Shown one piece after another: positions 7,609 to 63,649 of a DNA stretch of 64,000 bases. A program made the position numbers and the translations under genes. The notes under the pieces are model-generated. The model had not been told where the DNA came from. It did not search any database and saw only the letters and a list, made by a program, of their open reading frames with translations. Origin of the DNA: Paraspadella gotoi. Lineage: Eukaryota > Animalia > Chaetognatha. Position 1 is the first letter of the stretch. Every line of letters begins with the position of its first letter. The stretch lies in the NCBI GenBank assembly GCA_051294375.1, contig CM119265.1, forward strand, positions 27,038,517 to 27,102,516. The letters are read 5' to 3'.

Positions 7609-7683
7609 GTTTGAAGATATTTTTGTTTTAGTTTCACTTCTTGATGCGTTAATCCTTTCTTTTTCGTTGTTCATAGGTATTAG

Positions 7684-30011: not shown

Positions 30012-30382
30012 GGTGGAGGGCGGGGGAAGCGAGAGACGCGACGGCGGAGGGAAGATTCAGCCGAGTTTTTGTCAGTGGGGAGAATTTCCTCCACCACCTA
30101 AAATCAAATCAAAACAATTTAAAACGAGAAAAATAAATTAAAAAAACGCTCAGTAAAATTACAAATACGTATATAAATGTCAAGTTTTACCCTAAGAATA
30201 AATTAGCGGATCGAGTTCATTAAAAACGATAGCAATGAAAGAGTTTAAATTAAGAAAAAAAAATTTCAAACAATAATTCAATACGGGGCACAAAAACACG
30301 AGATCGATGAGCAAATTTGGTTTTTCGGACGGCAAAGTCGCATCCGGGGAATTTTTTAAAAAAATGTTTTGGACGACCGCCT

Positions 30383-32820: not shown

Positions 32821-35800
32821 CTAGGCGACGTAAGTGTAGATCTTTCGATCCTCGGCGGTTCGGGCAATGTACTCTCGCTCGATGAGAGACTCGATCCGCT
32901 TCTTGATGACCAGCGGGGATGGCAAGAACCGCGACTTGAGCTGCAGGGAGGGTGGAAGAGCGGAGAGAGTGGTTTTGGGGTGGCGGAGGGGGGGGAGGAG
33001 TGAAAGGAGAATTTCAGTCGTGTGAAAACAACAACAACAAAAAAGGGGAAGAAGAAAAGAATGGAATTTTTGGATCGACGCAACCTGCACACATTTGACA
33101 GGCCTCACCTGCTCCGTGCACTCCGTGATGAGGACGTTGTGTTGCATCTTTTTTCGCGCCTTCATGATTCTCACGATGGCGGCTTCGATCTCGTGCTTTC
33201 GATCCTCGTCCACCTTGGATTTAATTAATTAATTAAATTTAAAGTTATACGTTAAAATGAATACCATCTATCTGACCTTGGATCGAGTCTCCTTCCGCTC
33301 GGGATCGCTCTCCCCTTTGGCGGCGACGGTTTGGATTTTGACGCGATGAAGTTTCGAGTAAAATCCGTCGTTGACGATGAACACGTGACCCGACTCGATG
33401 TCCTTCGCCTAAATTGAGAATCGCGAGACGGGAAGGGGAGGAGGAGGAAGGGGTCGTGGCTTATTACGAACCTCTCCATACAAGTCTTTGTCAAGTTTGA
33501 AACGGTCATTAAAGCCGGAAATTGAAAACTTTACGCACTACAGATATATTTACAACCTTACTGTTCATTTTCTCGCTTACTACAACTTCTTAATTAAAAT
33601 TTTGATATTCCGAATTCTGAAACAGAAGAAATAATAAAAAAAACTCATTACTTTGCGCCGCCGAAGAAAAAGAATATACACCGCCACTAAGATGACGAGA
33701 AGTAAAATCAGAGAGGACGTGACGGTTTTAATTTTTTGGTCCCAGAAGAGTATCTGCACGACCTCCCCAAAGAATTGGGTTATTTTTAGAGTAAAGTCGG
33801 TGATCGGCCACCGAAACGTAAACCAAATTTTCATGGCAAACTATTTGGCTTAAATATTAAAGAGGATGAGAGTCTGTTAATGAATTAACTTTCTTCCACT
33901 GATATAACTTCGTACATCTCTAGGCCCGCATCATCGTCAAATGATAATCATAAAATGGAAATTAACAATTACAGTCGCTCTAACCTTTTACTTAAGTTTT
34001 CGAGTCGACGTGTCTTTGATCTAGTAATAATTTTATATCGACAAGCGTCGCTCAGAAAATCATTAAACCAAACACAATTGTATACGTATTGTTCGAAAAA
34101 ATAGCGCCTAAATTTTACTATATTCTTTACGTATATTATTAAGTTCAATCTAACAAACCTTGGATCCCTCGCCGATTCTGGCCAAAACCCGCTGGCCGAT
34201 CTTGCCCATGGCCAACGATTGCATGGCGCGCATCAAATCTTTGTCCGGGATCTCCGTTTCGTCGGCGATCTCCTGATACGACCACTGAGGGCGCTGATTA
34301 AATTTTAGCAGGATGCACATTTGATACGTAGAGACCTAAAAATAGAGAAGAAAGCCATACTTTTGTAAAATCCCTATTTAAGAAGGAAGAATTAATTGAA
34401 AAAATAAAATATAAAATATAAATTATTAACATTCATCGTTAAACCTGAATGATGTGCTTTCGCGCGACTTTGCATCCTTCGGCGGGCGGAGGGGCTTCGT
34501 TCTCCAGATCTCCGCTGCTGGAATCCACAAGAGAAGTCGCGCTTTTCTCTTCCTTTTTGGCTCCGTAGAAAACGGCGTTGAGATCGGCCGACCCCAATTG
34601 CGGCTGGAAAGGGTTGGATTTATTTATTCATTATTTATGTTTTTATTACGGAGGTACAGGACCATCCTGATAAATTAATAATAACAACATTAATTAATAA
34701 AGGTTTAAGAAGACAAATAATGAAAATAACCTTTCAAAGCAACAGATGAAAAATATAAATATTCTCAATCGCCATACGACAATATGCAAATGAGAATGAT
34801 TATTTTTTTAATTAATTATTTCCCCGGTCGCACCTGCAAAGTCACGATTCTCCCCGAATGTTTTCCCAAATAGAATCTCTTGAACGCCTCGAAGGCGGTG
34901 GCGGGAGGGTGGGGGATGTTACACTTGGGCGTGGCCGATTGCGTCGGCCAGAATCCCGTCGTCAAGACGCGAACGAAGAGATCGACACCGTTTAGATTAA
35001 CGTTCGACGCTGTTGACGATGAAACACAAAATGAAAAAAAACAAAAAAAAAACAAACAAACATAAGAATGGAAAACAATTTTAATTTATTTCTTAAAAAA
35101 CCTAAAATTCTTACAAGTGACGTGATTCCTGAATTCGTCCATCGTCGTTCCCGAGACCGTCATATCTCGGAACATTCCTTCAAGCTTGGACGTGAACTGA
35201 CAGCCGCACTCGTGCTTCAGTTTGGAAATCATGTTCTTCTCGCTGTCGTCGGAGACGCTCTTGTTCAACAACAAGCGTTTGGCTGAAGGACCAAAGACGC
35301 AATCGATTGCATAAGCAAAGAAATATGTATGGGATGAAGTTATCATTGAACATGAAATGAGATGTAGTTGTACAATTTCATTTGCATATTGCAGTATTTG
35401 GGATAACTTCGAATAATTTAAAATTCATGTCCACTAATATTACAGGTTCACTGGGAGTGAATAAATAAGACTGTGAGAGAGTCTTGATTGAAAGCTTACA
35501 GAAACCTGCTATGTTATTATCTTGTAAGTGTGATGGAGGCCTTAAACCACCAAAGCCTGTCCAAAGTCAGGGACAAGATAGCTTATTTATTAAATGAATG
35601 GATAATTTTTATATTGGTTGTACCAATTTCATAAAATTCACCTCCTTGTATTTTGATGCTAGTGCGGAGTACAATATAGTATTCCCCGATCTAATACTTA
35701 AGGGAGTGGTCTTTTCATACAATTGAAACATTCTTTGAAATATTTTCCACTTCATTGATAGGGAAGCCAGGTACTCTGGGAGTGAATAAACGAGACTGTG

Positions 35801-37834
35801 AGAGAGTCTTGATTGAAAGCTTGCAGAAACCTGCTATGTTATTATCTTGTAAGTGTGATGGAGGCCTTAAACCACCAAAGCCTGTCCAAAGTCAGGGACA
35901 AGATAGCTTATTTATTAAATGAATGGATAATTTTTATATTGGTTGTAGCAATTTCATATACGACGCGCCTCCCATAAAAATACATCACAAAAATGAGAGC
36001 AATAAATGTACCGAGATGCTGCTTGTAGTATTTTTCGAAGACGTCTTTCTCCTGCAAGAAGCGGAAGAGGACCATCGATTTGTCAAGAACAACTTCGACC
36101 TCGACTTCGGTGAGGCCCTTCACTCCCTTCTTCAGTTTGTCATCGATGAAGAGGGACAAGTATTCCGGACTCTGGCAAGGAAAGAAAGTGGGATTGCAGA
36201 ATGCGGATGGGTCGTGTGAGTTCAATCCAAAAAGCTAGGAAGAAAGAGGTAAGAAATCCGTTTTCAAACCCTCGATTTACCTTACTATTAAGATTGAGAA
36301 AGTACTCGAAATCTCTGGAGATCATCTGTTTGAATAGTTGGTCGGTACTGAACGCTTCGTGGAGAAAGTGATCGAAACGGTCCTTCAGATCCAGTAGCGA
36401 TTGAATATATGTGATGGGATTCTTCATCTGGGGGAGAAACGATCGGTTGTGATCGCAGAAAAACATTCACGTGGATAAAATAAAGCCAGAGACGCTCACG
36501 GAGGCAGGAGGTGGGGCGGAGGATGTGGAGGCTTCGGCTTCGGGTTCTACGACGAGCGCTTTGCCCTGTTCTCGCAAATAAGTGGAGATGCAGTCCACCA
36601 TCGTTCGCAGACCCTGGAAAGGGTAAACATATTTTTGTCTGTCATTATCGTCGACCACCAAAATGCCGTAAAACAATCGCACTCACCTGAGGAACCCGGC
36701 TAAAGAGTTTGTACATGCAAGCGAGGTCTTGAGTCTTGTCGTTCTTGAGCATGTGGACGACTCCAGAATTCTCCATCTCGACGACGGTCTTCATGTGTTT
36801 GCAGATTAACTCCTCCTCGAGCACGGAGACGATGGGACCCTGACGGGGACGCGTAGATAGACAGAATGAGAGCATTCTTTGTATACCGGGTCGAAAGTTC
36901 ATCTTCTATATCTATTGCTTAACTACTCTCTCACCGAGATTAAATGTGGGAAACAAAGAGGTCCCGGAAAAAATGTATTCGTTCGTTCTTACCTCCGTTG
37001 ACTTGTCCAAGTAATGGGTGGCACGCTCGGCCTCCTCGTTGATGCGCTGCTCCACTTTTTTGATGTAGACGGAGGCTGAGTTTTCGGCGAGGAACTTTTG
37101 ACTCTCGAGTCGATAGAACTCGGCCGACTGTTCGAGGAAAGGCTTCTCGAAGTCTTCCTCGTAGACGGCGCGCGACTCCACGCCCAACACCATCAGCATT
37201 TGACAAGTGTTTTTCACCGCCTGTCGGTCCACCACCTCGTTCTTTCGCTCGCGGGCCACCATGTCTTTCGAAGTGGGTGTTGGGGTGAGGGTTAAGGAGA
37301 GGAGGTTGGAACATGTGTCATCGCTACCGTTTTAACTTCACCTCGAAACTTACCTAGTAACGTTTTCTTGAGGTGAGTTCTGATTTCTGGGTGCCTCACC
37401 ACCTGATCCCTGAACGTGGCCAGTCCCAGGTTGTAGACGTTCTCGACGTTATTCTGCGTGACGTAGACGCGGTCCATGTACATGAGAATGTCCCTGATCA
37501 TGACCATGGAGGTGTGGTGGTCCTGCCACGACATGTTCAGCGTGTGGAGGAAATTGTTGTGAAGGGATTCGAGGACGTCGGAGCGAACTTTGCCGACGAG
37601 GTGCTCGGTGACCACCTCCCGCAGGCCCGTGTACAGCTTCTCCCCGTGCTTGTGAAGCACCATGGTGTAGGCGTTTCTGTAGAGCTCCTCGAAGGAGAGT
37701 CCGCTGTTGTTTTTCTTCTGGATCTCCTGGATGGCGTTGCGCAGGAGCGACCAGATGTTGTTCACGTACTTTTCGTCCATCGTCATGGGGAAGGCGCGAA
37801 TGCGCATCTTCGTGTCTTTCTTTCCCTTGTTCAT
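32821..37834 (-). CDS. CUL3: Cullin-3 (multi-exon)
   Basis: [91 protein letters not shown]-stop. Confidence 0.97.
33652..33834 (-). CDS. Candidate alternative first coding exon (61 aa, one TM helix + RRRK) inside a CUL3 intron
   Basis: TTTAAG acceptor and gccATG context upstream; [22 protein letters not shown] ends at AAA|GTAATG, phase 0, matching the phase-0 CUL3 exon starting at 33408. Confidence 0.35.
35451..35958. repeat. ~325-bp-period satellite-like repeat (~1.6 units) in a CUL3 intron
   Basis: 35451-35633 and 35776-35958 differ at only ~4 positions; the same family occurs at 62137-62429. Confidence 0.9.
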
Positions 37835-38677: not shown

Positions 38678-38923
38678 ATAAAACTATACTCTTTTATTAA
38701 ATGGATGGCGCACGCATTTATTCCCATTTACGGAGATAAATATTGTATGAAAAAAAAAATATGGTAAAGGAAAAAAAAAATTCCTTGGGTGAAATAAACT
38801 AAAATAATACTATACTTCTTGATGACTGAGATCTGAGAAATATTGTTCTCCTCGTTTAATTTGTATAATTTCTTAAAGTCTAAACACTCGACAAAAAAAA
38901 AAAAAAAAAAACAGCGCCACAAT

Positions 38924-41777
38924 CTAGTCGGCTTTAGTAAAATCGATATCTCCTCCGTAGGCGGCCATGAGGTACATGATGACGAAGCCGATGATGATTC
39001 CACTGTGTTGAATCGCAACCACGAGCAAAGTGTTCGATCCACTTCGAATCATTTCCTCCGCCTGAAGAAAAAAAAATCGAATCGAAATTAAATATCAACT
39101 AGGGTTTAAAACCAATACCCTGACCATTCGAATGAAGACCCGCAAATTAAAACACTGTGGCGAATCCTAAATTCGCCTCCCGTATAGCTTGGTGAAACTA
39201 AGCTCGTCCCATTGGCTTGGACAGCTAAGCACTCGTTCACCAACCGTGAGTTCCGGGTTCAATCCCCTCACAGTCACGCTGGTTAAAGTTGTGATGGTGT
39301 CGGCATAAACACGCCAGTGACATGGGGTGGTCACTGCAGGTCCAAAGCCCTGAGCGCCAGCTAGCGGGAGATGCCTCACACCCCATGCATCACACATGTC
39401 CCCCCGTTGCCATAACACTACAATATGCAAATGAGTTTAAACTGTGTAGTTATCATTCACCGAAGTCCCGCCGTTTCAATATTTTTGTTAAGCAAGAACC
39501 TGTTGATTGAGTTCTGGCACCATATCCACCAGGGCGATGTACAAGAACATCCCAGCGGCGATGGCGAAAATCCACTGCGCGCTCTGTGTCGTGTCGCCCA
39601 AGATGATTCCGAATATAAGTCCGCAGTAGCACATGCAAGCCGACAAAAAGTTGTACAACAGTGCCTGGTGAAAACGTAAGAAGAAATGAAAGCTTAATTT
39701 TACATGCATTAGCCGATTGGGGTTGGGCGGGTGTTTAGGGTTAGGGTAGTTAAGTGACACCATTTACCTTTTTTTTTAGTAATAAAATTGATATACGTTG
39801 TTATTCATAAGCGAAAATCAAAGCCGACCCCAAAATGAGTTTTTTCCCCCAACCTGCTTGAACTTCATCCCCGAGTTGAGCAGGATGGCGAAGTCCCCGA
39901 GCTCGTGGGGGAATTCCTCGCAGACGACGGCGACGGAGATGCTGATGCCGGAGAGGACGGACTCGGTGAAGGCGGCGCCAATGGAAAGACCGTCGATGAA
40001 GTTGTGGAGTCCGTCGCCAAAGATGACCATCCAGGCGACGGTGGCGATGTCCGAACCCGAAGTTGGCGCGTCGTGGGAGTGGCCGTGGTGGGCGTGGCCG
40101 TGGGGAACCACGCCGTTGGGGGCGTCGCGGAGGAGTACGTCGGAGAATGATTCGGGAGAAACCTGGCGAACGAGAGTCTTTAGGTCAAAATTCTTTTAAA
40201 AGAATATAACCAATCACTAATCACTTGGTCCTCTAGAGGTTTGAGCGCCTGTTGACTCTCGCTGTGCTTGGGCGTCCTCGCCTGATGATCCCCTTTCTTC
40301 ATGTGGGGGACTTTCATCTCCGCGGCTTCGTTGGTCTGTACGCTCTGCGCTTTGATTGAACAGATGGGCGGAATCTCGGCTTCCGGCGACTCGGATCGTT
40401 CGGCGTCGGCGTCGTACTTCCGGTCGGCCGACTCGTGGCGCCGCCGCTCGTGCCGCAACTCTCGCTGCCTCTTGCGCCAAGTCTCCGCAGAGCGGAGGAC
40501 GCGCTCCGTGACGAGGAAGAGGTAAATGCCGGCGAAGATGGTCGAGGCGCGGTGGAGGTAACTGCGTGAAAAAAAAGAATTAACTTACCAAACCCTTACC
40601 CATAATGACGCTCCCCCCCAATTTCCTCCTCACCCGAGACCGCCCATTTCTTCGGGCGTCATCCCGAAGGTGTGCGGCATGAGGTGCAGCAGCCCCGAGC
40701 CCGAGAGGGTGCCCACGGCCAGACCCACCATCCACATTAGGCACTTCTTGTACATCCGGGTCTCGATAAAGGGCATGACGACGGCGCCGCCCAGCGAGCA
40801 GAAGCTGATGATTGTGACGAAGAGGAAACCGTAGCCGATGCTCGTAGTGAGAGGGAGACGACGTTCTTTGGGAAGAGATGGGGAGCACGATCTGGAGAGA
40901 GAGAGAGAGAATCCTTGAGCTTAATTTTTATATTATCTCAACGTAAGAAATAATGACGGAATAAAATTTTGAAATTGACAGAGACGTGTTAGTATAGTAA
41001 ACATCGAATGCTTTAAAAAAATAATGAAAGCCAGCGAGAATCGTTAGCTAAGAAAAGCAAACGCATAAGCAAGGGATTTGGGAGACTTGTTTTTTAACGT
41101 AATTCTATCAAAAAAATAAATAAATATGAATATTTTTAACAAATTGGAAATGATCAGTTGATCACCTGCAAGATTACTGACTTAGATTGGTCGTTGTTTA
41201 ATGTATAATCTTTTTTTCTTTTTCACTGAAATTTTGATTTATCCACATTTTGATAAGTTAACATCTTCAATTAGGAATTGCAGCATAAAAACAACACCGA
41301 GAATTAACGAAGTTAATAAAGTGATTTAAGCTCATTAATTCTATCTCCATCTCACTTTTTACGAGATTCGAAATCCACGAGGAGCGCCGGCGCTAACTTC
41401 TCCACGCATCCGGCGTCAAGGTCCATGGCGCCGCTTTCGGCCAAAAAGGCGCCGACCGAACGGATTTCGGCGGCGGCGTCCTTGAAGGACGCCGTCGCCA
41501 GGCAGTCGGCGGCAGAGAGGGACCCGCAATCATAGAGGGATAGCGGCGACGACGAGGAAGACGACGACGACGACATATTGCAGGGAGGCGAAGCGATGAA
41601 GGACGCGAGGCCCTCTACCGACGTCAGCGCCGACTCGGGAAAGAAAGAGTCGACGCTCGCCGAATAGAGGGCGCTGAGATTCTGGACAAAGTCGGGGCGC
41701 GTGGCGGCGACCGCAGAGAGAAAGGGGAGACAGAGAAAAGAGAGGAGAGAGAGGAGAAAGAGAGAGGTAGACGGCAT
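38924..41777 (-). CDS. LIV-1 family ZIP metal transporter, ZIP8/ZIP14 type (spliced)
   Basis: Signal peptide [84 protein letters not shown]. Confidence 0.9.
39156..39413 (+). mobile_element. 258-bp solo-LTR-like element with tRNA-type Pol III promoter (Helenus/TRIMp3-like), copy 1, in the last ZIP intron
   Basis: TGTGGC...GCCATA ends; 4-bp TSD ACAC (39152-39155, 39414-39417); A-box-like TGGCTTGGACAG (39213-39224); B-box GGTTCAATCC (39256-39265); homologous to 53979-54236. Confidence 0.8.
39302..39391 (+). ncRNA. Twister-like structured RNA domain within element copy 1
   Basis: GGCA-TAA-ACAC-GC-[CAGTGAC..GTCACTG]-CAG-GTCCAAAGCC-CTG...ATGCC; stems covary with copy 2. Confidence 0.5.
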
Positions 41778-42485
41778 TTTAAGATTTAACGGCTCCAGTT
41801 TTCTTTCGATCTGTTGAAACAACAAAAGTTTCAATTTTTTTAAGAGTTTTTTTTTCTTTTTCGTTACAGAAGGGTTCACGATTGGATCACTTTTTAAACC
41901 GAGTTGATTACGTACGTAGGAAATGAAAATACATGTGAACTAAGGCCTATAATTGGTAAATACTAAAGGGGAATGACAGTGGGCGCCCTCTAATTAAGCT
42001 TTTTATATTAGGAGAATATACATATGCATGTATTTTATGCAGTATCGATAGTTTGTTTTGAAACCTCATTGATCTTTTTTTAGCAGGTAGATCTGAATCG
42101 CTAATAATCTGTAATGAAAAAAAGTTGGTGGGTATTATCTTTTGGTGAAAAAGATATGCTACAGTCATTTTCATAAATCATCATTATTAATAACGATAAA
42201 CCATTCAACAAGCAAAATATAAATTTCAAGTTACTGACACTTTACGAGCGCATAGACTAACTATCATTAAGCTAATTCTCAAGCTCACAACGTAAACTCG
42301 AGCAACAATATGTAGAAGAGAGGGAGATACGAGAAAGTTTCAAGTATCACAGAGAACGCGTTATTGAGTTTCAAGAAGAACAAAATGACTGAGAGGAAAA
42401 GGGAAGTTTTGTAGATCCGTTGACGCGTCAATGCAAACGCCGTAAATCACTGAAAAACCCCCGGGGAGGGGGGGGGGATCCCCGT

Positions 42486-44655
42486 TCACTTGATCATTTG
42501 TCTGGCGTCGCTGAAGGTGAGATAACCGAGGGCGCCGACGACGTTGATGAACGAGGCGAGGACGAAGACGGGGAACCAACGATTTCCGGATTGCGAGACC
42601 AACTCAGCCGTGAAGGGACCGCACACGATGCCCGGCACCGTGGCGAGAGTGTTGGAGATAGCGAAAGTGACGCCGGCGCTGTGCGGCGCCAGGTCGGCGT
42701 GGTTGGCCAAGTGGCCGGACGAGTTGAATGCGCAGAGGCCCATGGAGCAGGCGACGAAGAAGAGTGCGAACCGGAGATCGCTGGCGGCGCAAAAGGCCAG
42801 CAGCGCCGCGGCGGGGCCGAAGAGGCCGACGGAGGTCATCAGGCGCCGCACGGCGAGGAGGGACCAGCGACGCCGCGTCACCAGGAAATCCGCCACGTGA
42901 CCCGAGACGATGTTGAGGAGAAAGTTGAGGAAGAAGGGAACGGCGATGTAGCTGACCGTACGGGCCTCGGCGCCTGGTAGGAATTCGTCGTTAATTGATC
43001 AAATTATCTCAGACTTATGAAATTTCAGTAAATTAATTATCTGGCTTTCCCTATCAAAGAAATAGTATAATATTTTATGAACCGTTTTAATTGAATGGAA
43101 GAACCTCCATATTCTTACATGGCAGGCCGGCCTTGCTATATTACTATCAGGTCCTTGAAGCTTTCAATAGAGACAAGTTCATCGACGCCTTACCCAACTC
43201 GTCGGTCAAGTAGGTTGGGAGCCAGTTCATCACGATGTAGTTGGACCAGTTCATGGAGAAGTGGGCAATATAGATCGCCCACAATGGACACCGATTGAAG
43301 TACTTTACGCTCGAGTCCCACAATTGCTTAGAGCGACCCCACAACTTGCGCCACCTTGAAAAATATAAGACGATTTTAAAGGCAAACATAACAAGCAAAG
43401 AATCAATTTGATTATTAGTAGCAGATAAATAAATGAAACCCTCCTTGCACAATATGTTTCATGCATAAGTGATCACCGTAAAATATGGTCATACAACCAG
43501 AAAGTCAATGCAAATACTAAATTCAATATTGATCAATAAAGGATAAACGCCATAAAACGCTAGTCCCTATTTCGATTTATACACGAGAAATCATCGTTCC
43601 TCGTTTCTTTACTTTTCAAAATATCTCACCGCCTTCCGTCGTGCCTCGCCATCCGCTGGACGTCCACCTCGTCGACGACGATCAACAACCCTTCCTTCTC
43701 TTCCTCCCGTCCATCCCCTCCCCCCACCGCTCCTCCTCCTCCTCCTCCTCCCCGGTTCTCCTCGTAAGCGCAGAGCCAGATCGGCAACCAGGCGAATCCC
43801 ACGAGGCCCAGCGAGTGAAAGCTCAGGCTCCAGTGGGAAGCCCGCGGCGCGAAGACGGCGGCCAGCACCTGCCCCGCCGAGCCCATGGCCACCAGGTAGC
43901 CGAAGGCGCGGGAACGTTCCTCGACGGGCACGTCGCGGCCAAAGGCGTGGAAGATGGCCGGGAGGCCGAGGCCTTCGCCGAATCCGAGGGCCACGCGAGA
44001 GACGATGAGGAGGAGGGGGAAAGGAGTGAGGAGGGGAGTCAGGAATGTGGTGAGGGACCAGAGGAACACCGCCGCCGCCAAGACTCGCTTGGCGCCGAAA
44101 CGTTGGGCGGCTTTTCCGCCGAGGAGTTGGCTGCAAGGATGGGAGGATTTTTGTTGTGTTAAATGAAATTGGTATAAGCATTATAAAAATTATCTATTCA
44201 TTTCATCAATAAATTATCTTGCCCCCGATTTAAGCAAGGCTATTGTTTCGCAGAGAAGAGAATCACAACATTAACAAGTTACAAATTCGGTATGTACAAC
44301 TTTTCAAAATTGTTGTGGGTCGCCCGATAAATCATTAACTTATAACGTCACACCGTCACGCGTATGATTCGCAAGAATCGATAAACAAAACGGAGCATCC
44401 TCTCGCTTCCCGCCACGCCCACCTTGACACGTAGCCAATAGGAAAGGCGCTGAGTATCCACCCTTGGGACCGGATGTCAATCTTGTACTCTTTGGCGATG
44501 GGGACGATGGCGATGGGCATGAGGATGCGGTCGGCCGCGTTGACGAGGTTGGCCGCCGCGCAGAGGCCGATCAACGTCGAAGTGGCTCGTCCGCGCGGTT
44601 TCGCGGAAACGCTGGCGCTTCCTCGATCCGCGTACGAGTCCGTGGAGATCGTCAT
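42486..44655 (-). CDS. SLC17-family MFS anion transporter (SLC17A9-like), 4 exons
   Basis: NAADRILMPIAI, ILSAFPIGY, RVALGFGEGLGLP, ERSRAF, WAIYIAHFSMNW, WLPTYL, NHADLAPHSAG, SNTLATVPG. Confidence 0.85.
43041..43080. repeat. Degenerate, inverted fragment of the 325-bp repeat family
   Basis: CTGGCTTTCCCTATCAAAGAAATAGTATAATATTTT resembles the reverse complement of 62208-62242. Confidence 0.55.
44163..44241. repeat. Degenerate, inverted fragment of the 325-bp repeat family
   Basis: ATGAAATTGGTATAAGCATTATAAAAATTATCTATTCATTT...TATCTTGCCCC resembles the reverse complement of 35570-35632. Confidence 0.65.
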
Positions 44656-44973
44656 CGCGTCGAGTCTTTTTCTCAATTCCTCCGTCGTCTTTCAAATTCC
44701 TTTCATCTCATTTCCATTTCAGTTTTTCCATTCTTTAGTTTGAGAGAATTTCCTCTTCAATAATGGAATTTCGAGACTCGAGCTCACGATCATAAAAAAA
44801 AAAGTTCTAAAAAGGTCGATAATGAAATATAAACGTGAGTAACGATAACAAAGGTAGAGAACTGTGTTCTAAAAGGTAAGGCCACTCCTGATATTTACGG
44901 TAGCGAATATTAATGATGACTAATGAATGATCGACTCGAGTAAAAAAAAGAAAACTGAAACAAAAGACAAATC

Positions 44974-46474
44974 TCATTTCTTCTTCTTCTTTTTTCCGCT
45001 TTCAGTTTCTTTATTTGCCTCAACATTTCCATCGACCGATGGCCTCTTCGTGCCCATCCCGCGGCCCGTTCCGCCGCTCGCCTCGCCGCTCGACCCGCTT
45101 CCCAGCATCGCCCGACTCCAAAAGGCGGTCTCGACTTTGGACGGCGTCCAGTCCACCTCCTTCTGCTCTTTGTTCCATCGCCTGACGATGTCCGCAACTT
45201 TTTCGGCGAACCTCAAATAGGCCGTCAGAGTGTAGTCGATCTTGGCCACGCCCAAGACGGCCGTCACAGCCTCGTCGGACATGAAGGGAACTTTCTCGGG
45301 TGCGTAGCGAGAGAGGACGAGGGAGGCCGTGGCGGGGCCTACGCCCTGAGTGAGGAACGGGGAAGGAAAGAACAATGGCGGCGGCGTTTCTTGTCACTGC
45401 CAAGCATAAGTTGGAACAATGATTGCTACGACGTCCATAAACCAGGATGCTATGCGACCAAGGGAGTGGAAGGGCAAACAGACGCTCAACGAATCTCGTT
45501 ATATTGTCATCTCAATGGTAAGGACATTCGCTACAAAAAAGGAGTGGTGTTGGACTCAAATTTTTGAAGAATCACTGGAACTTTCAACATCTATTTGTAA
45601 CTCGTTTAATAAAACATTGGTTTATATTCTAATTAATTTTGATTGATTATCGTTGCGCGTTAATTTATATTATTGGCCTCTTTTTCCTTTTATGCTGATC
45701 AGTGTCAGTCGGGGTTTCAAGAGTTAATTAAGAGGTTTCAATCGTTTCAATCCGTTTAAGATGTTTTAAGTCGTTTTAGATTAAGCCCGCTCTTGATCAC
45801 TTGATTAATGCTCATGGCTGCCCAAATATTTCCTGCAGGTTATGACTTATATCAGAACCGTCTTTGTACCATTGACAAACATTAAGACGATTCATGTCGT
45901 ATCAAGACGAGCCATCCTACAAAAATTTTCACTCTACACTGATGCATCTGCCAGTTCACTTCAAGTGAGAGAATTTCTTGGGCATCCCCTTACTAACACG
46001 CCAATTACGGTTCATCAGTGGCACCTTCGGAAATAATGCTTAATGCGGTCTCCCTAAAATTGTGCCTCTATTTATTTCTGATCCTATTTGTTAAATCCCA
46101 CAATCGAACCTTTCTACCTTCAATAGACACATTTCCTTCAGCCCCGAGCTCAGGTCGTCCGCGTCGACCCTCTCGAAGGCTTTCTTAGACGATTCCCTGA
46201 CGACTGCCTCCGCGTTCGACTCTACGAGCTTCTGCAGCCGGGGACGGAACTTTCCGCGCGCCAACTTCCATCGCGTCAACTCGGCGAGTTCGGCGGCATC
46301 AAGAAAGGGCGGGCGGCGTCGCCGAAGACGATCGTCAAAGTCGCCCGAAATCCAGGCGTCGATGCGGAGGAGATCCGCACCGGTTTTAGAGTCTTTTTTC
46401 TCGGCGGCGCGATGTCGAAGGGCCGATGGGTAAGAGAGGAGAAACGGCGCCATCGACGCAGAGTCAACAGACAT
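44974..46474 (-). CDS. Amun-like protein (HhH DNA-glycosylase-like fold), 2 exons
   Basis: ELTRWKLARGKFRPRL, LLK|GVGPATASLVLS, PFMSDEA, YTL, WTPSKVETAFW. Confidence 0.8.
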
Positions 46475-47315
46475 TTTTTGATCGAGTTTTTCTTTTAATT
46501 AATTATTTTTGTTTGTTTATTAAATTATTTTTTTTTTGATCGACGCCGCTAGAGAAGAAAAAAATGATATAAAAAAATTGAAAGATTCGGAACAGAGATT
46601 CGCGAATAAGTTTTCATTGCGAAAAGAATTGTAATGGGATTCGATTACTCCGCACTATCCTTGTTTCAATTGTGAGATTCAATTTCCTGACAACTTCATT
46701 ATATTAGAACATTAAGACTAAGGTAATAGCGTTCCACTGTTGTCAAGGACTAATCTACTTTTTTTTAGTAACGCGCGAGAGAAAATCCTCAAATTGATCT
46801 CCTAATGAGACGAGAGGTTATCACTGATAAAGATCATGAATGCGAACGGCATTTTTTACGCGGCAAAAAAACGAGCTGCACTTTCTTCGTATATTTCGTC
46901 AAAAAAGGCAAAGAAATGTTTCATTCAACGTGAAACGAACAGTGTTCGAACATAGCGAGAAATCTGACCCACAGGAGCGTCATTATGTAATGAACGTCAT
47001 AACGAAGCATGCATACTGCAAAAAGGGAAAACGATGATAGAAATTAAATTTCTACAAGAGACATGCTTTTTTTTTCACATGGCGACTTTTTTTAAGAATC
47101 GAAAAAAACAAAAAAACAAACAAAACAAAAAGATAAACGATCAAGCGATAAAAAAAATCACTAGTAAACAGTAGAGATACACAGCGAGACTGTTTGGCCG
47201 GGTTTCTGAATATCAAAAAGAAAAGGAGAGCGGGAAGAGGAGGGGTTGTAGCGCCGTACGATCACCGGCGCCGCTCAAAAAAAGGTTTGGTTTTTTTGGT
47301 TGTCGTTGATGTTGT

Positions 47316-50280
47316 TCATAGCGGACGAGGCTGATGAAGGGCGAATAGGCCGGCGACGAGCGGCGGCTCGCTTTTTAAGTTCTTCAAAGGATTTGCGGTG
47401 GAGGAAGTGGAGAGGCCCATCCACGAGCTTATTGTGCTGCCTGAAAGGAGGATCGAGGGCGAGGTTTTATTTTAATATTTAATTTATAAATGTATTTCGA
47501 TTAATTTATTCATTGATTGAACAATGAACATCTTTCTACCTGAAACGGGAGCGGGTTGGTGAGAGAGTCGATGCGAGAACGAATATCCTTCGCTCTGCTC
47601 CAACTTGGACAGAATCATGAGGACCTGTCGATACATGGGCGGGACGCGGTCCGACGTCCGAAGAGCGCCTCTGGTGGAGACGACGTTGAAGGACTCGAGA
47701 CAGTCGCACTGCACCTGGAGGAAGCGGTCAGAGTGGCGGTTCTCCACCACCACGCAGAGACCCGCCCATCCGTGGGTGAGGTAGTAGGCGGTCAGGTGGG
47801 AGCCCATCGACTCCACTTTGCCCGACGAGGTCGCCATCTCGATCATGGCGTCGGCCAGCGTCTCCGGAGCGGCCAGGCGCTGCTCCACCTAGGGGGGGGG
47901 GGAAGACAAAGTTGGAATTCACAAATAAAACATTTCGTTAGGTGGATAATTATTATTCATTATATTTCTTTTTTAGTTATCATTACAGAAGATCGAGAAA
48001 CTCAAAAGATGGAATCAAATGGAACCGGACGGAATCGGATCATAGACTCGGAGAGAAATCACCGAAAATGGAATCGAGCTCTCCGATTGGTCGAGACTCA
48101 GATGGAACCGGCCAATAGGCAGATGGGCTTCCATCCGCCAGGAAATTCTATCCACGTCTCTGATCCACTTGATCCACTTGATCTAATTGTATTGGTTTTT
48201 GTACGAGATCATTCTGTCCAAAAATTGACACCGTCTTCTTTTCTATTTTCTCTCAATAAAATCCACTTTGGTTTCATGCTGAAATCCCTGTCTTCTTACC
48301 TAAAGAATTGTTAATAAAATGTAAACAATGTAGGAAAACAATGGTTCTCGTCGTGTCTCTTCTCATCTATTACAGATAAGTGCCTAGTCTGTAAACTCAA
48401 CGCTGTCATCGACCCCTGGTCGACATTCACCAAAGCCGAGATCTGCGATGCTCCTTTAGTACCAAGGAATCCAAGGATTCGCCGCTCAAACATAATAAAA
48501 AGCGCTCACCATGACTTTTTTGGAGGAGTGAAGAGCGACGATGAATTTGGGCCTGGGGGCGCTCGCGGCGGGTGTAACTCCCTCCGTTGGCGACGAGGCG
48601 TTCCAGTGATTGAAGGCGGTGCAGACGACGACGTAGCGACCCGGTTCGAGCATCACAGTGCAGGTTACGAAGGGGTAAACCTAAAAAGATGGAGGTCAAC
48701 TCGGACGATTTCGTCGTCATACAAAATTGTCATGAATGAGTCCAGAGACAAACCTGTCGCTTGGAGTGGCCGATGTGCTTGCCGACGAGCGGACCCGATC
48801 CGCTCGCTGCCCGAAACACCATAATGCAGAGATCGACGGGCGATCGCCGAAAGGCGTCTCCATTAGCGCCACAGGCTCCGCCGCCGCCACCGCGGGTTCC
48901 CTCTTGAAAGAGACAGAGTTCCATCTCGGTCGGGGTGAACACCGTCACCTCGGTCGTCATGAGCGGCTCCTTGGCGTCGGCGGGGAACTCCCCCTGCAGT
49001 CGAACTTCTCTCCAGTTGTCGCGGATTTTGCAGACGTCGATGCGATCGAAGAATTTGAGGACGTCGTCGAGGCCGATCCAGAAGATGCCCTCGCTGTTGC
49101 GGTGAGCGGTTCCCTGAGATATTCAAATATTATCAGCAAACGTCTCAGTTTAAGTTTATATAAACTTTTTACTAACCTTGACCAGCTTCTTCAGCTCTGG
49201 AGTCCAACTCTTAGAGGAATCGCTCCAGTCGCCCTTCCACGAAAAGGTTCCCCACGGGTTCCGCAGCTGGAGTAAGCGATGCCCGCCCAGCTCCTCCACG
49301 TTCATCACGGAGTAGGCGTGGCGAGGGCGAAGTCCCAACGCTTGATATTCTGGAAGGTGGAAATGATTTTGAAAACTATCTTCTTGTGATGAGCGGGGTT
49401 TTCCGCCTCTTGTTTATGTCCAACACTTGTTTGAGATTTAGGTTTTCCCATGAAACTGTTCCGAAATATTAATGAACCTGGAGAATGCCTAATATCCTGC
49501 GTTGGCATAAATTTACAAAATATTTGTATCATTCCAAATGAAGCAATATGCAAATGAGATTTTAGTAATTCGATTAAATAAAAAACCCCGGGCCTCTCCT
49601 CACCGTCGTCGTCGACCCGCATGTTCCCTCCGCCGCAAGAGGCGCCCATGAGAAACCCGGCGGCGCGAGAGGAGACGAGCAGCGCCCAGACGAGATCGCG
49701 ATCCATGGGGGCGTCGCCGGGGGCGTAGGAGGAGTGGTGGAGGGGGATGATGTCGCAGGGGGCGCCGGTGAGGGTGGCTAGGCCTTCCACGCAACGACCC
49801 GAGACCAGGGCCTTGAAAGAGGGGCAATCGGATGAAGTAAAATAATTGTTTTAAATAATACCGAATATATAATAAACAGAGGAACTCCGTTGCTAAGACT
49901 CACCTCGTAGCATCCGTGCATCTTGGCGACGGCCTTCTCTATGAGCGGCACCCACAGTTGCTTCTTCTTCGCCTGCGAAAAGACGAGATGTCCGCCGTCG
50001 TCGCAGGGCAGCAGATCGTCCACGAGCACCATCGTCCATTGGCCGTCCTTACAGAGGCGAACCTTGTGTTTGGTAGAAAAACAGTTCATTAATAACGTTT
50101 GCAATAAATTAAAAAAGAAGAAAGATGGTCACATAATCGGTTCTCACCTGGTAAGCTCCCTCGGGACAAACTTCTCGAGTGACCATGACTCGGCGGACGA
50201 GTTCAGGTTTCTCCGCCAAGACGGCCAAGGCACTCAGGAGCCAACAGTTCCCAAGAATCCCCTGGAAGAGAAATATGAGG

Positions 50281-50322
<42 letters not shown>

Positions 50323-53300
50323 CTACCTGAGAAATGTCAGTGGGGGAAGGATTGTTGGTAAACACAGAAATTTCGTTCCGGTTCGAAGAGGAAAAGTTAA
50401 GTTCTTGCGGTCGCCGCCAATGGGAGACGGGGTAAGGCGTCGAGGGGCGGCCTTAAGAGGGTGGGGCGGGGGTAGATAAATGGGTAAGTGAGGATTGAAG
50501 AAAGAAATATGAAATTCAAAAAAAGGCCGGAGTTTTGACCGAAAAGCGATTAGGGGCCGCTTGAAACTTGACAGTGATAAATCGAGGGTAGGGAAGGAAG
50601 ACAAAAAAAAGCCTGTATTTCGTCATTAGTATAGTATTGAGTTAAATAAAACGCATCTGTACGTAAAAGAAACACGCGTAAAAAGTATGTATAGACGGAA
50701 TTTAAGAAAAAACAGTCGGCGTGAGCGATCGCTAATTCATTGACAGGAAAAAAAGAGTGTGACCCAAGCGGCCAAGCCCCAAGCCTCGGCCGGGAAAAGC
50801 TACAGCTATAGAGAACAGTTCAAGTTAAATGTGCGCGAGAGAGAGAGAGAGACTTTATAATTTTCATATAAATTAATATTAAATATTATTAGGTATATAA
50901 ATTCCTTGTTTATGCAAAAGAATCCCCCTAATCTTTTTTGAGTACAAAAACCTATCTTACACGATTTTCTTCTTTTTTTTTAGGTTTTTCATTTCACCTC
51001 GGGACACGCCCACCCGCCAACAAAAGAGCAACCGGATGTAACCAGGGCACAGACTTACTTGACTGCCACTCGAAGAGTTTCAAACCGAAAACTCGACATG
51101 TGACAGTTTTGGGGAAAGTCTCGTAAATCTCCGTCGGGGTTCCGTCTTAAGCGGAGATTCGAGATTCGAAAAAATGGGAAAGTATTTTTTTTAAACGTCG
51201 AGCCTCGGGTTTTTCTTTTTTAATATTAATTTATTCTTAAGTAAATTCCTAGGATATTTATATTAACTTGGTAACAAACACGAGCGCTCGAGAGAAAGAT
51301 AAACTACACATAAATTTAATCCACCGAAAAAAAAAATAAAAAGCGGGAAAAATAATTTCTCATGAGACAACCTAAGACACCAACCGAATAAAAAAATAGA
51401 AACTAGGCATTTCCAAATAAGGACAACAAAAAAAAAAAAAAAAACAAACCAAATTCCATGATTGACGCTTGGATCGCCTGGCAGATGGAACTTACCCGGA
51501 CCAGAGTAGAGGCTCTTGTCACAGGGCGGGAAGGAATCGTCCACAAAGGGAAGTCGATTCTCCCGACAATAGGCGACGATGTTGGACCACAAATCTCGCG
51601 CCTCCAACTCCTCGATCTTACGCAAATCCTGACATGGGAATGAATATCAACACAAAATGTATTATTATTATTATTATTATTACTATTAACTAGATTGAAT
51701 CAAGAAACGGGGAAACCAAAAAGCATCGAAAATTCAAGACCCGACTGAGGTTAATTTCTAGAATTATAGTTTATATTATATTATATTTATTTTTATATTA
51801 ACCTTCATCGATCATCATCGCACCTCAATGTACTGACTCTCCCTCCGCTGCAGCGGACGTCGCGGCGGCAGAGCCGCTTCGCCAGCTTCGTCGCCGGCAG
51901 AGCCACACATCCTGCAGCGACGACGCCCCTTCCGCTCTCCGGCGTTGGTGAAGGTGCAGGTGCGGCATTGCCACCTGGCGGAGGCGTTGAGAGATGCAGA
52001 GGGGGCGGGTCCTGACGAGAGAAGAAAGAGGAAGTCGTTAGAGTGAGTGAGTGAGAGGGAGAAAGAGAGTTTCAGTTCCTTACTTGATTCGTCCACGCCC
52101 TGTTGTCGCTTAATTTGTGGCCGCGGCAAAGGGTGGGCGTTACCTGCGACGCCACTTTGACCGGAAGGGGCGACGAGACGCTGCATTCCGCAGGCGCCGC
52201 ATTTGGATGCCGACGCCGCGTTATCGAGCGTGCAGCGTCGACAGGTCCAAGCCTTGGAGTGAGCGACGAGGGTGATAATTACATTTTTTTAATTTTTCAA
52301 TATTCTCGTAATAATACAAATTTAAAAAATATATATCCTTACCTTTTAAATATAATAGATAATTCAATAATTTAAGAATTACATTTACAATTACATCTTA
52401 AATTTGTAATCACATGATCAATTTTGAAATAATTACATTAGTATAATACACAATTACAAATGCACATAAAAAATTTAATAATTTTTTATTAATTATAAAA
52501 TTAATTTAAAAATTGTAGTCCTATTATGTTTTCTGTACTGAATCAACCATGTTGCATTCGAATAAAACGCTTGTATTATAAAAGTGACTTATAGAATTGC
52601 TCATACTTTGACCCGATCTCCGTCGTCTTTGGAAACGGGCCTTTTAGGCGCGGGCGCGCCGCACGCAGTGCAGAAGGAACTGGCGGTGGCGTTGAGGAGC
52701 GTGCAGGCGCCGCAAGACCAAGAGGGAGTTTTAGCGGCGCCGGCGGTAGGCGCGGTGGAGGAGGCGGCGCCGGTTCCGGATTGAGATTCCGTTTGGTTCT
52801 GAAGACGAAAAAACGGATCGTCGAAAAAACAAGACAACGACCAAACAAAAACAATAACAATAACAAAAGACAACAACAACAAGACGAACCCGATGTTCGT
52901 CGTTGCCGACGACGAAGACGGAATCGTCTTTGGCTTCGAGCGACGAAGATCCGTCCACCTCCATGAGCGAATCGGATCGAGGCTTGGCGATGTAGCGAAC
53001 GCAGTCGTCGCCGCTGGAGTCGGGCAAAATCAGGAGGAAAAGTAGGAGGTAAGTCGTCGTGGAAAAATTAAGTCATTTATGAGGAAAAAAGTAAGTTAAT
53101 AAGGGTTTTCGCGTTGCAAAGATCGTGGGAGCGGAGTGAAAAAGAGATGGGGAATTAAAGTCGTTAAAAGGAATTAATTCCGGATTCATTTAAAGCTGAA
53201 ATCGAGGAAAAAAGTCTGGGTGTTTGAGTAACGAGAGAAAACAAAATGGTCAGATTAATTCCATTTAGTCTTTTTCGGGACGTTTCGGGGAAAATACGGG

Positions 53301-53728
53301 TTAGATCCGATGGGTTAGATCCAATCGGTTAGATCAAATCGATTAGGGGTCGATTCGGGTGAGTTTGATTCTATTCGAGTCATTCCAGTTCAGTTAAGAT
53401 CTTTTCAGATTAGTTAGGGTCAAGTTAGGGTCATTGAGGGTCAGTTCGAACCACCTCTTCATTCGTATCGGTGACTCCGGTTCGTCTTCTGTCAGACGAA
53501 GATTCGACGGCGGTCGGGTCGTTCGAACGGCGGCTGCGGCGGCCGACGACGTAGACGGCATTAAACGTTTCTTCTGCGGCGAAACGTCGGGCGACGTCGC
53601 ATTCGTCGCTGAGGATTCGTCGTCGTTGTCGTCGTTTTTCGTCTTCGGCCGAATTAAGTGGGATTCTTTCGAGTTCTCTCCCTTCTTTCGAGGATCGTCT
53701 GCGACGAGGCGAGGAGAGCGAAGCACGC

Positions 53729-53768
<40 letters not shown>

Positions 53769-56700
53769 TATGTTTTTTATTTCCAGATTTTTTTTTTCGG
53801 GAGGATTTCATAAGGATTTGCGGTCGTTTCTTTTTTATGTCGGTGGAATTAAAGAAGAATTTAAAATTCCAAATGAAAAAAATAAATTTAAAAAAGTTTT
53901 TCTTATGTACCTAATTTTTTTCCCTCTGTATTAGTGTCTACCCGAGAAAAAAAATTGTTAGTTTTAAATTCAACATATTGTGGCAGCAAGACTTAAAAGC
54001 TGCCTCACTGCTGTCCGTCCTCAGCCTCGTCTCAATGGCTGAGCAGGCTAAATCATCTCATTCCATCCGTGCGTCCCGGGTTCAATCCCTGGGTATCCCG
54101 GTTCTGGCTTAAATGTGACGGTGCCGGTATAAACATGCCAGTGACAGGAGGCGGTCACTGAGGGTCCGCAGCCCCTATGCCAGTTGGTGAGATACCCCGC
54201 GCCCCGGGTATCACAGGCTATCCTCCCGTTGCCATAATATTTCATTACAAAACGTTTTTTGTCGACTCGCAGACTTTCCGTAAGAACAGCGTTGGACAAA
54301 CTTTTGATGAGAATTTGAAATTGAATAAAATTTTTCATTCGCGTTTTAATTAATAAAAGTACCCCAAGACTACATTTAAAAATTGAATTAACAAAACGCG
54401 AATGAATTAGTCAAGAACTCAAAATCTCAAATCCACCTTCGGGAGAGACTTCCATATCGACGGGCGAGCGCGGCGCCGAAGCGTGTCGCGGCGTGGTCGG
54501 CGTCTCTTGGACCGGCGTCGTCAGGGGCGTGGACAACGGCGACGCCAGCGGCGAAGAGATGGGCGAGGCGAGCGGCGACGACATGGCGGCGATGACGTCG
54601 GCGGCATCGAAGTTTTCCGGGACGCCGACGGGGACGTTGCAACGACGCGGGGCCTCGCAGAGCGTGCACCGTTCGTTGGGGAGAGGGTTCTCAAGGGTGC
54701 AGCGTCTGAGGAAAAAGGTAAGATAAATAGGTAAGGATAAAGGGAATGATTGTACATAAGGTTTTACAAGTTTAAGTGGGGAGATTTTTTTTTTAAGCCT
54801 TCACGACGCGACGGCTCATGAACGAAAAATAGGGAGAAGAGAAAAGAAAAAAAAAGATAAAAACCCGATCAGAATTATACGTAGGATTCCACGAAAACAA
54901 AAATATAAAAAAGCGAATCAAACTGCAGAATTGGTTTGACAGGGAGAACACGAGGTTAAATTAATTGCCTTCTGCTCGAGCGAATTGAGGGGAAGAATTC
55001 GTAACCTCTTTTCAATTAGCAAATTAGCGCCCGACCGAGCGAAATTCTACTACGTAAACTTTTTAAAATAGAGGAAAAAAAACATTATTTGGTTTTTACT
55101 CTATTTCGTCCTTAATTAATCGAATAAATAAAAGATATAAACGACGAACCGACAGGTCCACACGTCTCGAGGTTTTCTGGCTCGGAGCTCGGAGGACGTC
55201 TCGGGGCGGACGATCTCCTCGGCGTCGAGTTCGGAGGGTAAGGCATTCTGGCCGGACACTGGGAGGTTTCAAAGGGGGAGAGGAGTGATTTGCTTTCTTT
55301 CTTTCTCATTTTTTGGTAGATCGAAACTGGTAAGTATCTTTGCTGAATTCTCTAATTAATTTCCCCAATACGTACACCGTACGTCGTACTGGTCTTTTTT
55401 CTTTGGTGATTTCAAAATTTTGCTTTTAAAATTTCTTTTTTCTTTTTTCTTTTTCCTGTTTCTTGTTTTTTCTTCTTTTTCGATCTTGCTTCTCATCCTC
55501 ATTCTCTCACTGATTGGCTTTCAATTATCGCAGATCTCTCTTTTTCACTCACTCACAGATTAGCTTTCAATTATCACACATCTTTCATCTACATTCCCTC
55601 AACGATTAACATTCAGTTATCACACATCTTTCATAGTCATTCTCTCATCGATTGTCTTACCCTTATCACAGATCACTCATCTTCATTCTCTCACCGATTG
55701 GCTTTCGATTATCACAGCTGTTGACGTTGTCAGCGCTGAAGACTGGCGCTACGGCGGGTGGGTCGGAAGTAGAGGGCGTGACGACGTTCGTCGACGCGAG
55801 AGACGACGTCGAGGCGAATCCGGGCGGCCTGGGTAAAACGGCGCCCTCTGACGAGGCCGTCAAAATATATCAATTAGATGCCGAGTTGACGAAATCGTTA
55901 AGAGCAATGCTGACAAAGCTGACCGGGATATTTGGTGACTATATTCACGTAGAAAACGGAAGATGAATACGAGTCATTTTTTGGTAAATTATAGAAAAGC
56001 GAGGAGAAAGCCATTTTATGAATGAATGAATTTACGGAAAAAAAAGAGCACCAGGGCGACTATACCTATTACTCAAAATAAATAAATGATCTCTAGTCTA
56101 GACAGACCACCGTATTATGACTGCGGTAAAAAAAACAGTTAAAACAAAAGAACTCGACAGGAATGAGACAAAAATGTCCTGGAGAGGCGGTTCTTCAATT
56201 TTTCTTTAAAACAAAAAACCAAAAATAAAATGTCTTTACAAAACAGAATCTGTGATACTTTAATCGCGACGTGTACTTAAGGGAAAATAATGAGCGAAAC
56301 CGAATCCCGCGCCTCGTGTCGTGACGTCACGCACGCGGGATCGCTGCCTCACCTTCGCGCTCATCACCTTTCTCCAGTTTGCCTCACCTTTATCGTCGTC
56401 CCCGCTCGCGACGCCGTTCGACGGCAGCACGCGAATCGTCATCGTCGTTGCTGCGCCGTTGGACGGCGCGGCGATTCCGGCTGCGGCGCCGTTAACGGCG
56501 GCGGCGTCCTCGTAGAGGAAGGTGGGTTTCTTCTTGCGATCGTTTTGGCCGGAAGAAGAAGCGAAGGCGAAGGAGCAGACGGAACAGGTGCGGCGGGAGA
56601 CGCTGGAGTCAGGGTGAGTGAGAGTGAGGAACGTGAAAAAGGGTAAGGAAGGGAAAGAAAATAAAAGGGTAAAAGAGAAGGGAATCATTGAAAAATGGTT

Positions 56701-61361: not shown

Positions 61362-63649
<2,288 letters not shown>

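Follow-up and report, generated by a model that had tools for sequence, protein, structure and literature searches.

The DNA analysed here, referred to as the window, is a stretch of 64,000 nucleotides from the chaetognath Paraspadella gotoi (GenBank assembly GCA_051294375.1, contig CM119265.1, positions 27,038,517 to 27,102,516 of the forward strand), and window coordinates are used for all positions. It contains two copies of a short non-coding element that resembles a solitary long terminal repeat (LTR) of a retrotransposon. The first lies in an intron of a gene for a ZIP zinc transporter and the second in a predicted intron of a gene that encodes a calpain with RanBP zinc fingers, both antisense to the host gene, as an earlier note on this DNA had claimed. 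Each copy combines tRNA-like promoter boxes for RNA polymerase III (Pol III) with a predicted self-cleaving ribozyme of the twister class. In the following, we describe the copies and their RNA motifs, and we argue that they are likely solo LTRs of a Helenus-like (TRIMp3) retrotransposon which works like the LTR retrozymes of plants.

Two copies with fixed ends in host introns

Both copies start with TGTGGC and end with GCCATA, and each is bordered by its own 4-bp target-site duplication (TSD) (Table 1), as had been stated before; the chance of finding both duplications together, estimated from the local intron composition, is about 5e-5. The length of exactly 258 bp previously given for both copies applies to copy 2, but copy 1 comprises 259 bp and ends at 39414. 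The two sequences share a global identity of 68% (BLAST E about 1e-20). By section, identity is lowest over the first 49 bp (54%) and highest in the ribozyme core (78%), the tRNA-like part reaching 68% and the 3' part 70%. Both copies are single units, neither being tandemly arranged, with about 50 bp upstream of the tRNA-like part, no 3' tail, and imperfect terminal inverted repeats of 7-9 bp. A third copy was not found in the window with BLAST and nhmmer.

Table 1 Features of the two element copies and of their host introns
Feature	Position	Strand	Basis or remark
Copy 1, solo-LTR-like element, 259 bp	39156-39414	+	Sequence; contig ends heap up at 39156 and 39414/39415
Copy 1, left TSD (ACAC)	39152-39155		Repeated at 39415-39418
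Copy 1, 5' hairpin	39159-39177	+	Two double-sided changes relative to copy 2
Copy 1, tRNA-like boxes	39213-39266	+	Degenerate A box 39213-39224, B box 39256-39266
Copy 1, predicted type-P5 twister	39278-39361	+	Descriptor, pair scoring, folding
Copy 1 twister: P5; P2 partner; P2	39278-39283/39356-39361; 39289-39292; 39309-39312
Copy 1 twister: general base; palindromic P1; predicted cut	G39293; 39298-39305; 39306/39307
Copy 1 twister: T1; T2; P3; P4	39295-39297/39342-39344; 39313-39314/39347-39348; 39315-39336; 39337-39352
Copy 1 twister: G-A; catalytic strand; UAA	39293-39294; 39293-39297; 39306-39308
Copy 1, 3' hairpin	39370-39391	+	5' strand alternatively pairs with 39302-39306 (possible blocking fold)
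Copy 2, solo-LTR-like element, 258 bp	53979-54236	+	Sequence
Copy 2, left TSD (ATAT)	53975-53978		Repeated at 54237-54240
Copy 2, tRNA-like boxes	54036-54089	+	A box 54036-54047, T-arm with B box 54079-54089
Copy 2, predicted type-P5 twister	54104-54183	+	Descriptor, pair scoring, folding
Copy 2 twister: P5; P2 partner; P2	54104-54108/54179-54183; 54113-54116; 54133-54136
Copy 2 twister: general base; palindromic P1; predicted cut	G54117; 54122-54129; 54130/54131
Copy 2 twister: T1; T2; P3; P4	54119-54121/54166-54168; 54137-54138/54171-54172; 54139-54160; 54161-54176
Copy 2 twister: G-A; catalytic strand; UAA	54117-54118; 54117-54121; 54130-54132
Copy 2, 3' hairpin	54191-54212	+	Alternative pairing with 54126-54130
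Host intron, ZIP zinc transporter, holds copy 1 antisense	39062-39499	-	Spliced contig, open spliced frame, Pfam Zip
Predicted host intron, calpain gene with RanBP zinc fingers, holds copy 2 antisense	~53729-54436	-	GT-AG, open spliced frame

The family to which the copies belong was gauged from the contigs of four of the ten public sequencing runs that contain the stretch, none of them listed as RNA; these contigs were aligned to the region of copy 1 (38900-39700). One of the four (X9) is an RNA run only by conjecture and did not contribute to the depth figures, and a biofilm run (X10) with only four contigs was not used. The summed contig depth, a rough measure that does not give a copy number, was 46,000-135,000 within the element and about 31 in the flanks in run X1, and, with the same reservation, 29,000-78,000 within and 14-28 outside the element in run X2, which points to thousands of copies. 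Loose contig ends accumulate at the left end of the element (88 in X1, 88 in X2, and 17 in X9) and at its right end (55+53 and 52+48 contigs). The contig flanks beyond these ends are AT-rich and agree poorly with each other (0.42-0.45), and the adjoining target letters are of the ATAT/GTAT type. The pile-ups, the disagreeing flanks, and the ATAT/GTAT letters together indicate a dispersed unit with both ends fixed and with a target preference; some Gypsy integrases typically use RYRY targets. The element is a real, dispersed, high-copy, non-coding unit with fixed ends and 4-bp TSDs.

The intron of the ZIP transporter gene is skipped exactly by a contig of run X9. That of the calpain gene is one of several candidates with GT-AG borders and an open spliced frame, the Pfam matches of this gene being located in other exons. 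The genome of the host animal is compact, and proteins of named relatives, none of them close, are 79-83% identical for cullin-3 and about 60% for FTCD. A twister-like core occurs at four loci of the window, each of them antisense to its host gene, an arrangement with a chance of 1 in 16, and this placement fits weakly with the argument, put forward in the earlier note, that cleavage of a sense transcript would be harmful.

Pol III boxes and predicted type-P5 twister

The B box is identical in both copies and an A-box-like motif is located 43 nt upstream of it, which corresponds to a tRNA-like spacing. Both boxes are thus present in both copies, as had been proposed, the A box being good in copy 2 and weak in copy 1. 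ARAGORN did not call a tRNA in either copy, and a run of four T is absent from both units, hence the boxes are not followed by a T-run terminator. In both copies, they precede the predicted twister.

For the ribozyme, a twister of type P1 without a recognizable catalytic G-A strand had been suggested. The twister class was retained and the type-P1 layout was not: neither a P2 partner nor a T1 strand is present downstream of P4, and both were found upstream of the UAA, which itself provides the scissile U-A, the general-acid A, and the next A. The upstream segment is composed of a short A-rich linker, the P2 partner, the general-base G and an A directly following this partner and preceding P1, and three bases pairing with the P4 loop; the catalytic strand said to be missing is therefore present in both copies. 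The location of the P2 partner and of the G-A strand upstream of the UAA indicates the type-P5 permutation rather than type P1. This permutation has been described (PMC10085705; PMC6765202), and each block of the predicted twister matches the table of natural twisters in PMC8501958 after permutation. Cleavage between U39306 and A39307, as predicted before, would fit the type-P5 layout as well. With the type-P5 twister of Rfam (RF02684), the element shares the strand order, the catalytic G and A, both pseudoknots, P2, P4, and the closing P5, whereas its 7-bp P3 and its palindromic P1 without a loop are absent from the consensus and its score lies below the threshold.

The pairings are largely conserved between the copies, and all five stems listed in the earlier note pair in both of them with the compensatory changes described there. 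In the pseudoknots T1 (3 bp) and T2 (2 bp), every pair is canonical in both copies; one pair of T1 is changed on both sides (U-A in copy 1, C-G in copy 2), and T2 and P3 are invariant. P4 pairs at 4/4 positions with two double changes, and P5, which closes the domain with 5-6 bp, is obtained as well when the two cores are folded freely. P2, previously regarded as imperfect, pairs at 4/4 positions in copy 2 once its partner is taken upstream and remains imperfect in copy 1 (3/4), where the outer pair is broken beside an extra base within the P2 partner that is absent from most of the related contig depth (letter depth 16,848 at 39289 versus 55,050 at 39280). Copy 2 carries a C instead of an A at the trans A.A pair in the loop. 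In assays of about 1,950 natural type-P1 twisters, flaws in P1 and P2 and an A-to-C exchange at the trans A.A pair were tolerated, whereas changes of the catalytic A, the catalytic G, and the 2-bp pseudoknot were not (PMC11662667). The residues of the latter kind are all intact in the element.

A descriptor written for this layout matched only 39289-39352 and 54113-54176 when both strands of the window were searched, and in 2059 locally shuffled windows it gave a mean of 0.003 matches and never two. When 30 named pairs were scored in the two copies, 59 of the 60 cells paired and four double changes were counted (one in T1, two in P4, and one in the 3' hairpin), compared to 28-36% pairing and no double changes in controls with slid partners. 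A hammerhead match was not found in the window by the Rfam scan. We consider the twister fold very probably real, and we expect the predicted ribozyme to be quite probably active in some copies of the family.

In both copies, P1 is palindromic over its 8 nt and has no loop, and the palindrome has been kept through two wobble exchanges. By itself it does not form a hairpin, and the self-duplexes have predicted energies of -9.5 and -10.9 kcal/mol; as a monomer it can provide 2 bp and a 4-nt loop, as a dimer 8 bp. This suggests cutting by paired copies and recalls the hammerheads of amphibians and Penelope elements, which cut as dimers (PMC7761336; PMC7229834). What had been designated P1 in the earlier note is a pairing between a downstream strand and the bases that immediately precede the cut. 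The downstream strand is also used by the 3' hairpin, and the three strands change together. This pairing is real and covaries, but it is not the catalytic P1. As modelled, the alternative pairing across the cut site is possibly a blocked state, comparable to plant retrozyme RNAs, which are predicted to hold their hammerhead blocked (PMC4918200); it could also result by chance from a single shared change.

A second repeat family with a twister-like core is present in the window. It is AT-rich (36% GC in the unit) and occurs at 35443-35960 (plus strand, in tandem with a period of 325 bp), at 62125-62432 (plus strand), and as a fragment at 44159-44246 (minus strand). Rfam Twister-P5 scored 25.6 bits at 35529-35571 and at 35854-35896, below its threshold of 37.6. 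The core, which was missed by the descriptor, has an 8-bp P5, a 6-nt palindromic P1, a minimal P3, and a short P2, and its T2 pair is changed on both sides relative to the LTR-like element. The core-bearing copies are antisense within introns of cullin-3 and HECT genes, and the sole sense fragment is without most of the core. This family looks like a non-LTR retrozyme or a Penelope-type tail with a twister.

Relation to Helenus and competing explanations

The element has much in common with Helenus (TRIMp3; Kojima 2024, PMC10886601), namely an LTR-type unit that is non-coding and contains A and B boxes derived from a tRNA, the TG start, the 4-bp TSD of the animal type, frequent solo LTRs, and a length within the range. 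For animal Helenus elements, 4-bp TSDs, matching box motifs, Gypsy-like primer-binding sites (PBSs), and solo LTRs are described, and a comparison of the consensus sequences by eye showed that several animal Helenus LTRs share the TGTGG start, the B-box context, and a similar pyrimidine-rich end motif (PMC10886601 and its supplement). The element differs from most Helenus LTRs by the twister, by the absence of a T-run after the tRNA-like part, and by its TA end; most of those compared have a T-run where the element has the ribozyme, and a few published ones also end or start with TA (PMC10886601 supplement). In the available text of PMC10886601, a ribozyme in Helenus is not mentioned and hammerheads are named only in the title of a reference; no twister was noticed by eye in the Helenus LTRs compared, and four twister loop strings had 0 matches in the available part of its sequence file, in which line breaks can hide matches. 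A TGGTG motif inside the element was considered as PBS and rejected, as copy 2 has a different sequence there and the motif changes in concert with the ribozyme loop. Of the LTR assignment made in the earlier note, the fixed ends, the 4-bp TSDs, and the Helenus-like layout were confirmed, and the right end is TA instead of the usual CA; we regard the element as probably of LTR type.

Two Helenus elements of Synergus gall wasps, Helenus-2_SyJa and Helenus-2_SyUm, agree with the element in the TGTGG start, the 5' hairpin, the A and B boxes, and the absence of a T-run, and by eye they have a self-cleaving ribozyme fold in a matching slot, downstream of the B box and before the end of the LTR. In contrast to the element, this fold is a type-III hammerhead instead of a twister, recognizable by a GUC site, a core with CTGATGA and GAAA, three stems, and 12 complementary bases between loops I and II, and internal parts with PBS and polypurine tract (PPT) are known. 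For Helenus-2_SyJa, a 277-bp LTR, a 485-bp internal part, and a 4-bp TSD are given (PMC10886601 supplement). The hammerhead is not remarked on in the available sections of PMC10886601, and a literature search combining hammerhead, Synergus, and ribozyme found nothing. Based on their sequences, Helenus-2_SyJa and Helenus-2_SyUm are candidates for animal LTR retrozymes that have a Pol III promoter, and the hammerhead in the matching slot suggests that Pol III LTRs with a ribozyme may form a broader group that has gone unnoticed.

Plant LTR retrozymes (Cervera et al. 2016, PMC4918200; PMC7761336) likewise have a ribozyme within an LTR-like unit, 4-bp TSDs, solo LTRs, and an inferred Gypsy partner. 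Unlike the element, they contain type-III hammerheads, are said to lack a promoter (PMC7761336), and have been shown to form circles. The element would work like a plant LTR retrozyme and is not a member of that group, its ribozyme being of the wrong class. We favour the view that a Helenus-like retrotransposon is the likely source of the copies, which would be its solo LTRs, and we assign a probability of roughly 0.6 to an LTR element that is processed by its own twister.

For such an element, the following cycle can be proposed. In a two-LTR master copy, Pol III would start immediately upstream of the A box of the 5' LTR and read through the element. The twister would then cut between U and A in both LTRs (element position 151-152), by which a monomer with 5'-OH and cyclic-phosphate ends would be freed, and the palindromic P1 would probably pair the two LTR ribozymes and thereby favour the cutting of full-length RNA. 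A host ligase of the RtcB type, an enzyme that circularises monomers of animal retrozymes in vitro (PMC7229834), could close the monomer to a circle containing one whole LTR with a restored promoter, and the alternative pairing across the cut site may prevent the circle from being cut again. Reverse transcription primed by a tRNA and integration would be performed by a Gypsy-type partner. Solo LTRs would arise either by recombination between LTRs or from LTR-length complementary DNA (cDNA) made off the circle, both origins having been modelled for plant retrozymes (PMC4918200). The odds of this circle route are in our view slightly below even.

Several observations speak against this interpretation. 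The termini are TG...TA instead of the usual TG...CA. A two-LTR copy, a PBS, a PPT, or a partner was not seen in the window or among the contig joints listed, and a two-unit joint was not seen among the 15 listed of 69 contig joints. The A box of copy 1 is degenerate. The descriptor and the structure were written after the sequences were known, and the covariation is not significant, as only two sequences were compared; 34 of 500 shuffles reached four double changes. In the comparison with the Rfam twister models, which the earlier note had proposed as a check, only twister-P1 matches below the threshold of 67.2 were obtained (22.3 bits for copy 1 and 19.1 for copy 2, the latter truncated), in which the part after P4 fits poorly, and a Twister-P5 match for either copy was absent among the matches listed. 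The whole element does not fold better than shuffled sequences (z -0.89 and -1.15). The nested twister fold lies above the free fold by 8.6 and 11.2 kcal/mol for the whole element and by 2.7 and 3.7 kcal/mol for the core, pseudoknots being uncounted in both cases, and the downstream pairing of the earlier note has a lower predicted energy than the type-P5 fold. Moreover, P1 is reported to be dispensable in natural twisters (PMC11662667), and the dimer step is perhaps unneeded.

The strongest alternative, which we nevertheless consider unlikely, is a Helenus-like LTR that captured a twister and moves by the linear LTR route without a circle, the ribozyme being either a passenger or used only for trimming the RNA, where it would stand in for the Pol III terminator or set the RNA end. 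A circle or junction was not observed, most of the Helenus LTRs compared have their T-run at the very slot of the ribozyme, and the second repeat family of the window, although unrelated, has a similar P5 twister core, so that a donor may exist in the genome. However, the ribozyme core is the best-kept section of the element, which argues against a pure passenger, and cuts in both LTRs would remove the terminal repeat required for strand transfer, the reason for which circularisation was proposed in plant retrozymes (PMC4918200). Distinctly less probable is a unit-length, SINE-like or non-LTR retrozyme of the Schistosoma Sm-alpha type (SINE, short interspersed nuclear element), moved by a long interspersed nuclear element (LINE) or a Penelope-like element. 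The combination of a Pol III promoter and a hammerhead is known from SINE-like repeats of Schistosoma (PMC6765202), and it would agree with the TA end and with the fact that an internal region was not seen. The ~50 bp before the tRNA-like part, the lack of a 3' tail, the two ends fixed across contigs, and the single units with 4-bp TSDs are contrary to this assumption, animal non-LTR retrozymes being tandemly arranged, below 50% in GC content, and bordered by longer TSDs (PMC7229834). A miniature inverted-repeat transposable element (MITE), i.e. a DNA transposon of the Ginger or Sola type with captured RNA motifs, would account for the fixed ends and the terminal inverted repeats and is very improbable, as these repeats are very short and imperfect and the RNA helices and pseudoknots show paired changes that suggest selection acting at the level of an RNA. 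Ginger- and Sola-type transposons also generate 4-bp TSDs. The version of the earlier note, in which the downstream pairing closes a degenerate twister of type P1 or some other fold, has twister-P1 as the best Rfam alignment and a covarying pairing of lower predicted energy in its favour, but hardly deserves credence, as a P2 partner and a T1 strand are lacking downstream of P4 and are located upstream, where they covary with the loop.

Apart from these elements, the window includes a near-perfect inverted repeat at 7680-7852 with 52-bp arms and a 12-bp spacer, probably a MITE or hairpin element, for which the Rfam microRNA matches were below threshold; a tandem repeat of 46-bp units at 55493-55716; and a 62-bp match in inverted orientation between 2380-2441 and 52534-52593 with 83% identity, possibly a small repeat. 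On the minus strand, a stop-to-stop frame of 2324 residues (23082-30056), intronless amid an intron-rich region, resembles an ankyrin-repeat protein with a PARP-like end, the domains having been assigned by eye. A metagenome scan with a 19-letter pattern of the core yielded 87 loci, none of which had the downstream twister loop or the rest of the element. They were rejected as relatives (best nhmmer E 0.004, little covered beyond the seed) and represent chance matches and one repeated, unrelated family. Loci L003, L044, L055, and L061 and about 30 others contain a repeated, often paired and inverted motif that resembles the ends of a prokaryotic insertion sequence and is unrelated to the LTR-like element.

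Novelty and implications

The combination of a twister with an LTR had been considered undescribed, and no report of it was found in the literature searched; subscription journals, Repbase, and bioRxiv supplements may hold a precedent. In this literature, the twisters encountered were associated with non-LTR elements alone (PMC8501958; in passing in PMC7761336), the ribozymes described from LTRs were all hammerheads, chiefly of plants (PMC7761336; PMC13570524), and according to reviews, animal retrozymes lack LTRs and retrozymes lack promoters (PMC7761336). A 2026 preprint also ties LTR retrozymes to type-III hammerheads, mainly of plants. Related solutions are the twister T-variants of the Perere-3 RTE element, in which ribozymes process the RNA of a retroelement that is of the non-LTR type and carries a type-P1 twister at its 5' end (PMC8501958), and the SINE-like repeats of Schistosoma, in which a Pol III promoter is combined with a ribozyme, here a hammerhead in tandem repeats of non-LTR type (PMC6765202).

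If the proposed reading is true, a twister in an LTR with a tRNA-type promoter would link TRIMp3 elements to retrozymes, add LTR elements to the non-LTR elements in the biology of twisters, and account for the setting of RNA ends in a Pol III-driven LTR element that has no terminator. The palindromic P1 predicts a dimeric twister. Further high-copy families of this kind may have been overlooked elsewhere, as Rfam misses the fold at its threshold. We tentatively suggest, at odds somewhat short of even, that there is an unrecognised animal group of Pol III-driven LTR retrozymes, very small elements with a tRNA promoter that replicate through small circular RNAs and have an interchangeable ribozyme, a dimer-forming type-P5 twister in the element described here and a type-III hammerhead in Synergus wasps. 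Such retrozymes would be the natural counterpart of the Tornado system, an engineered combination of Pol III and twisters for the expression of circular RNA.

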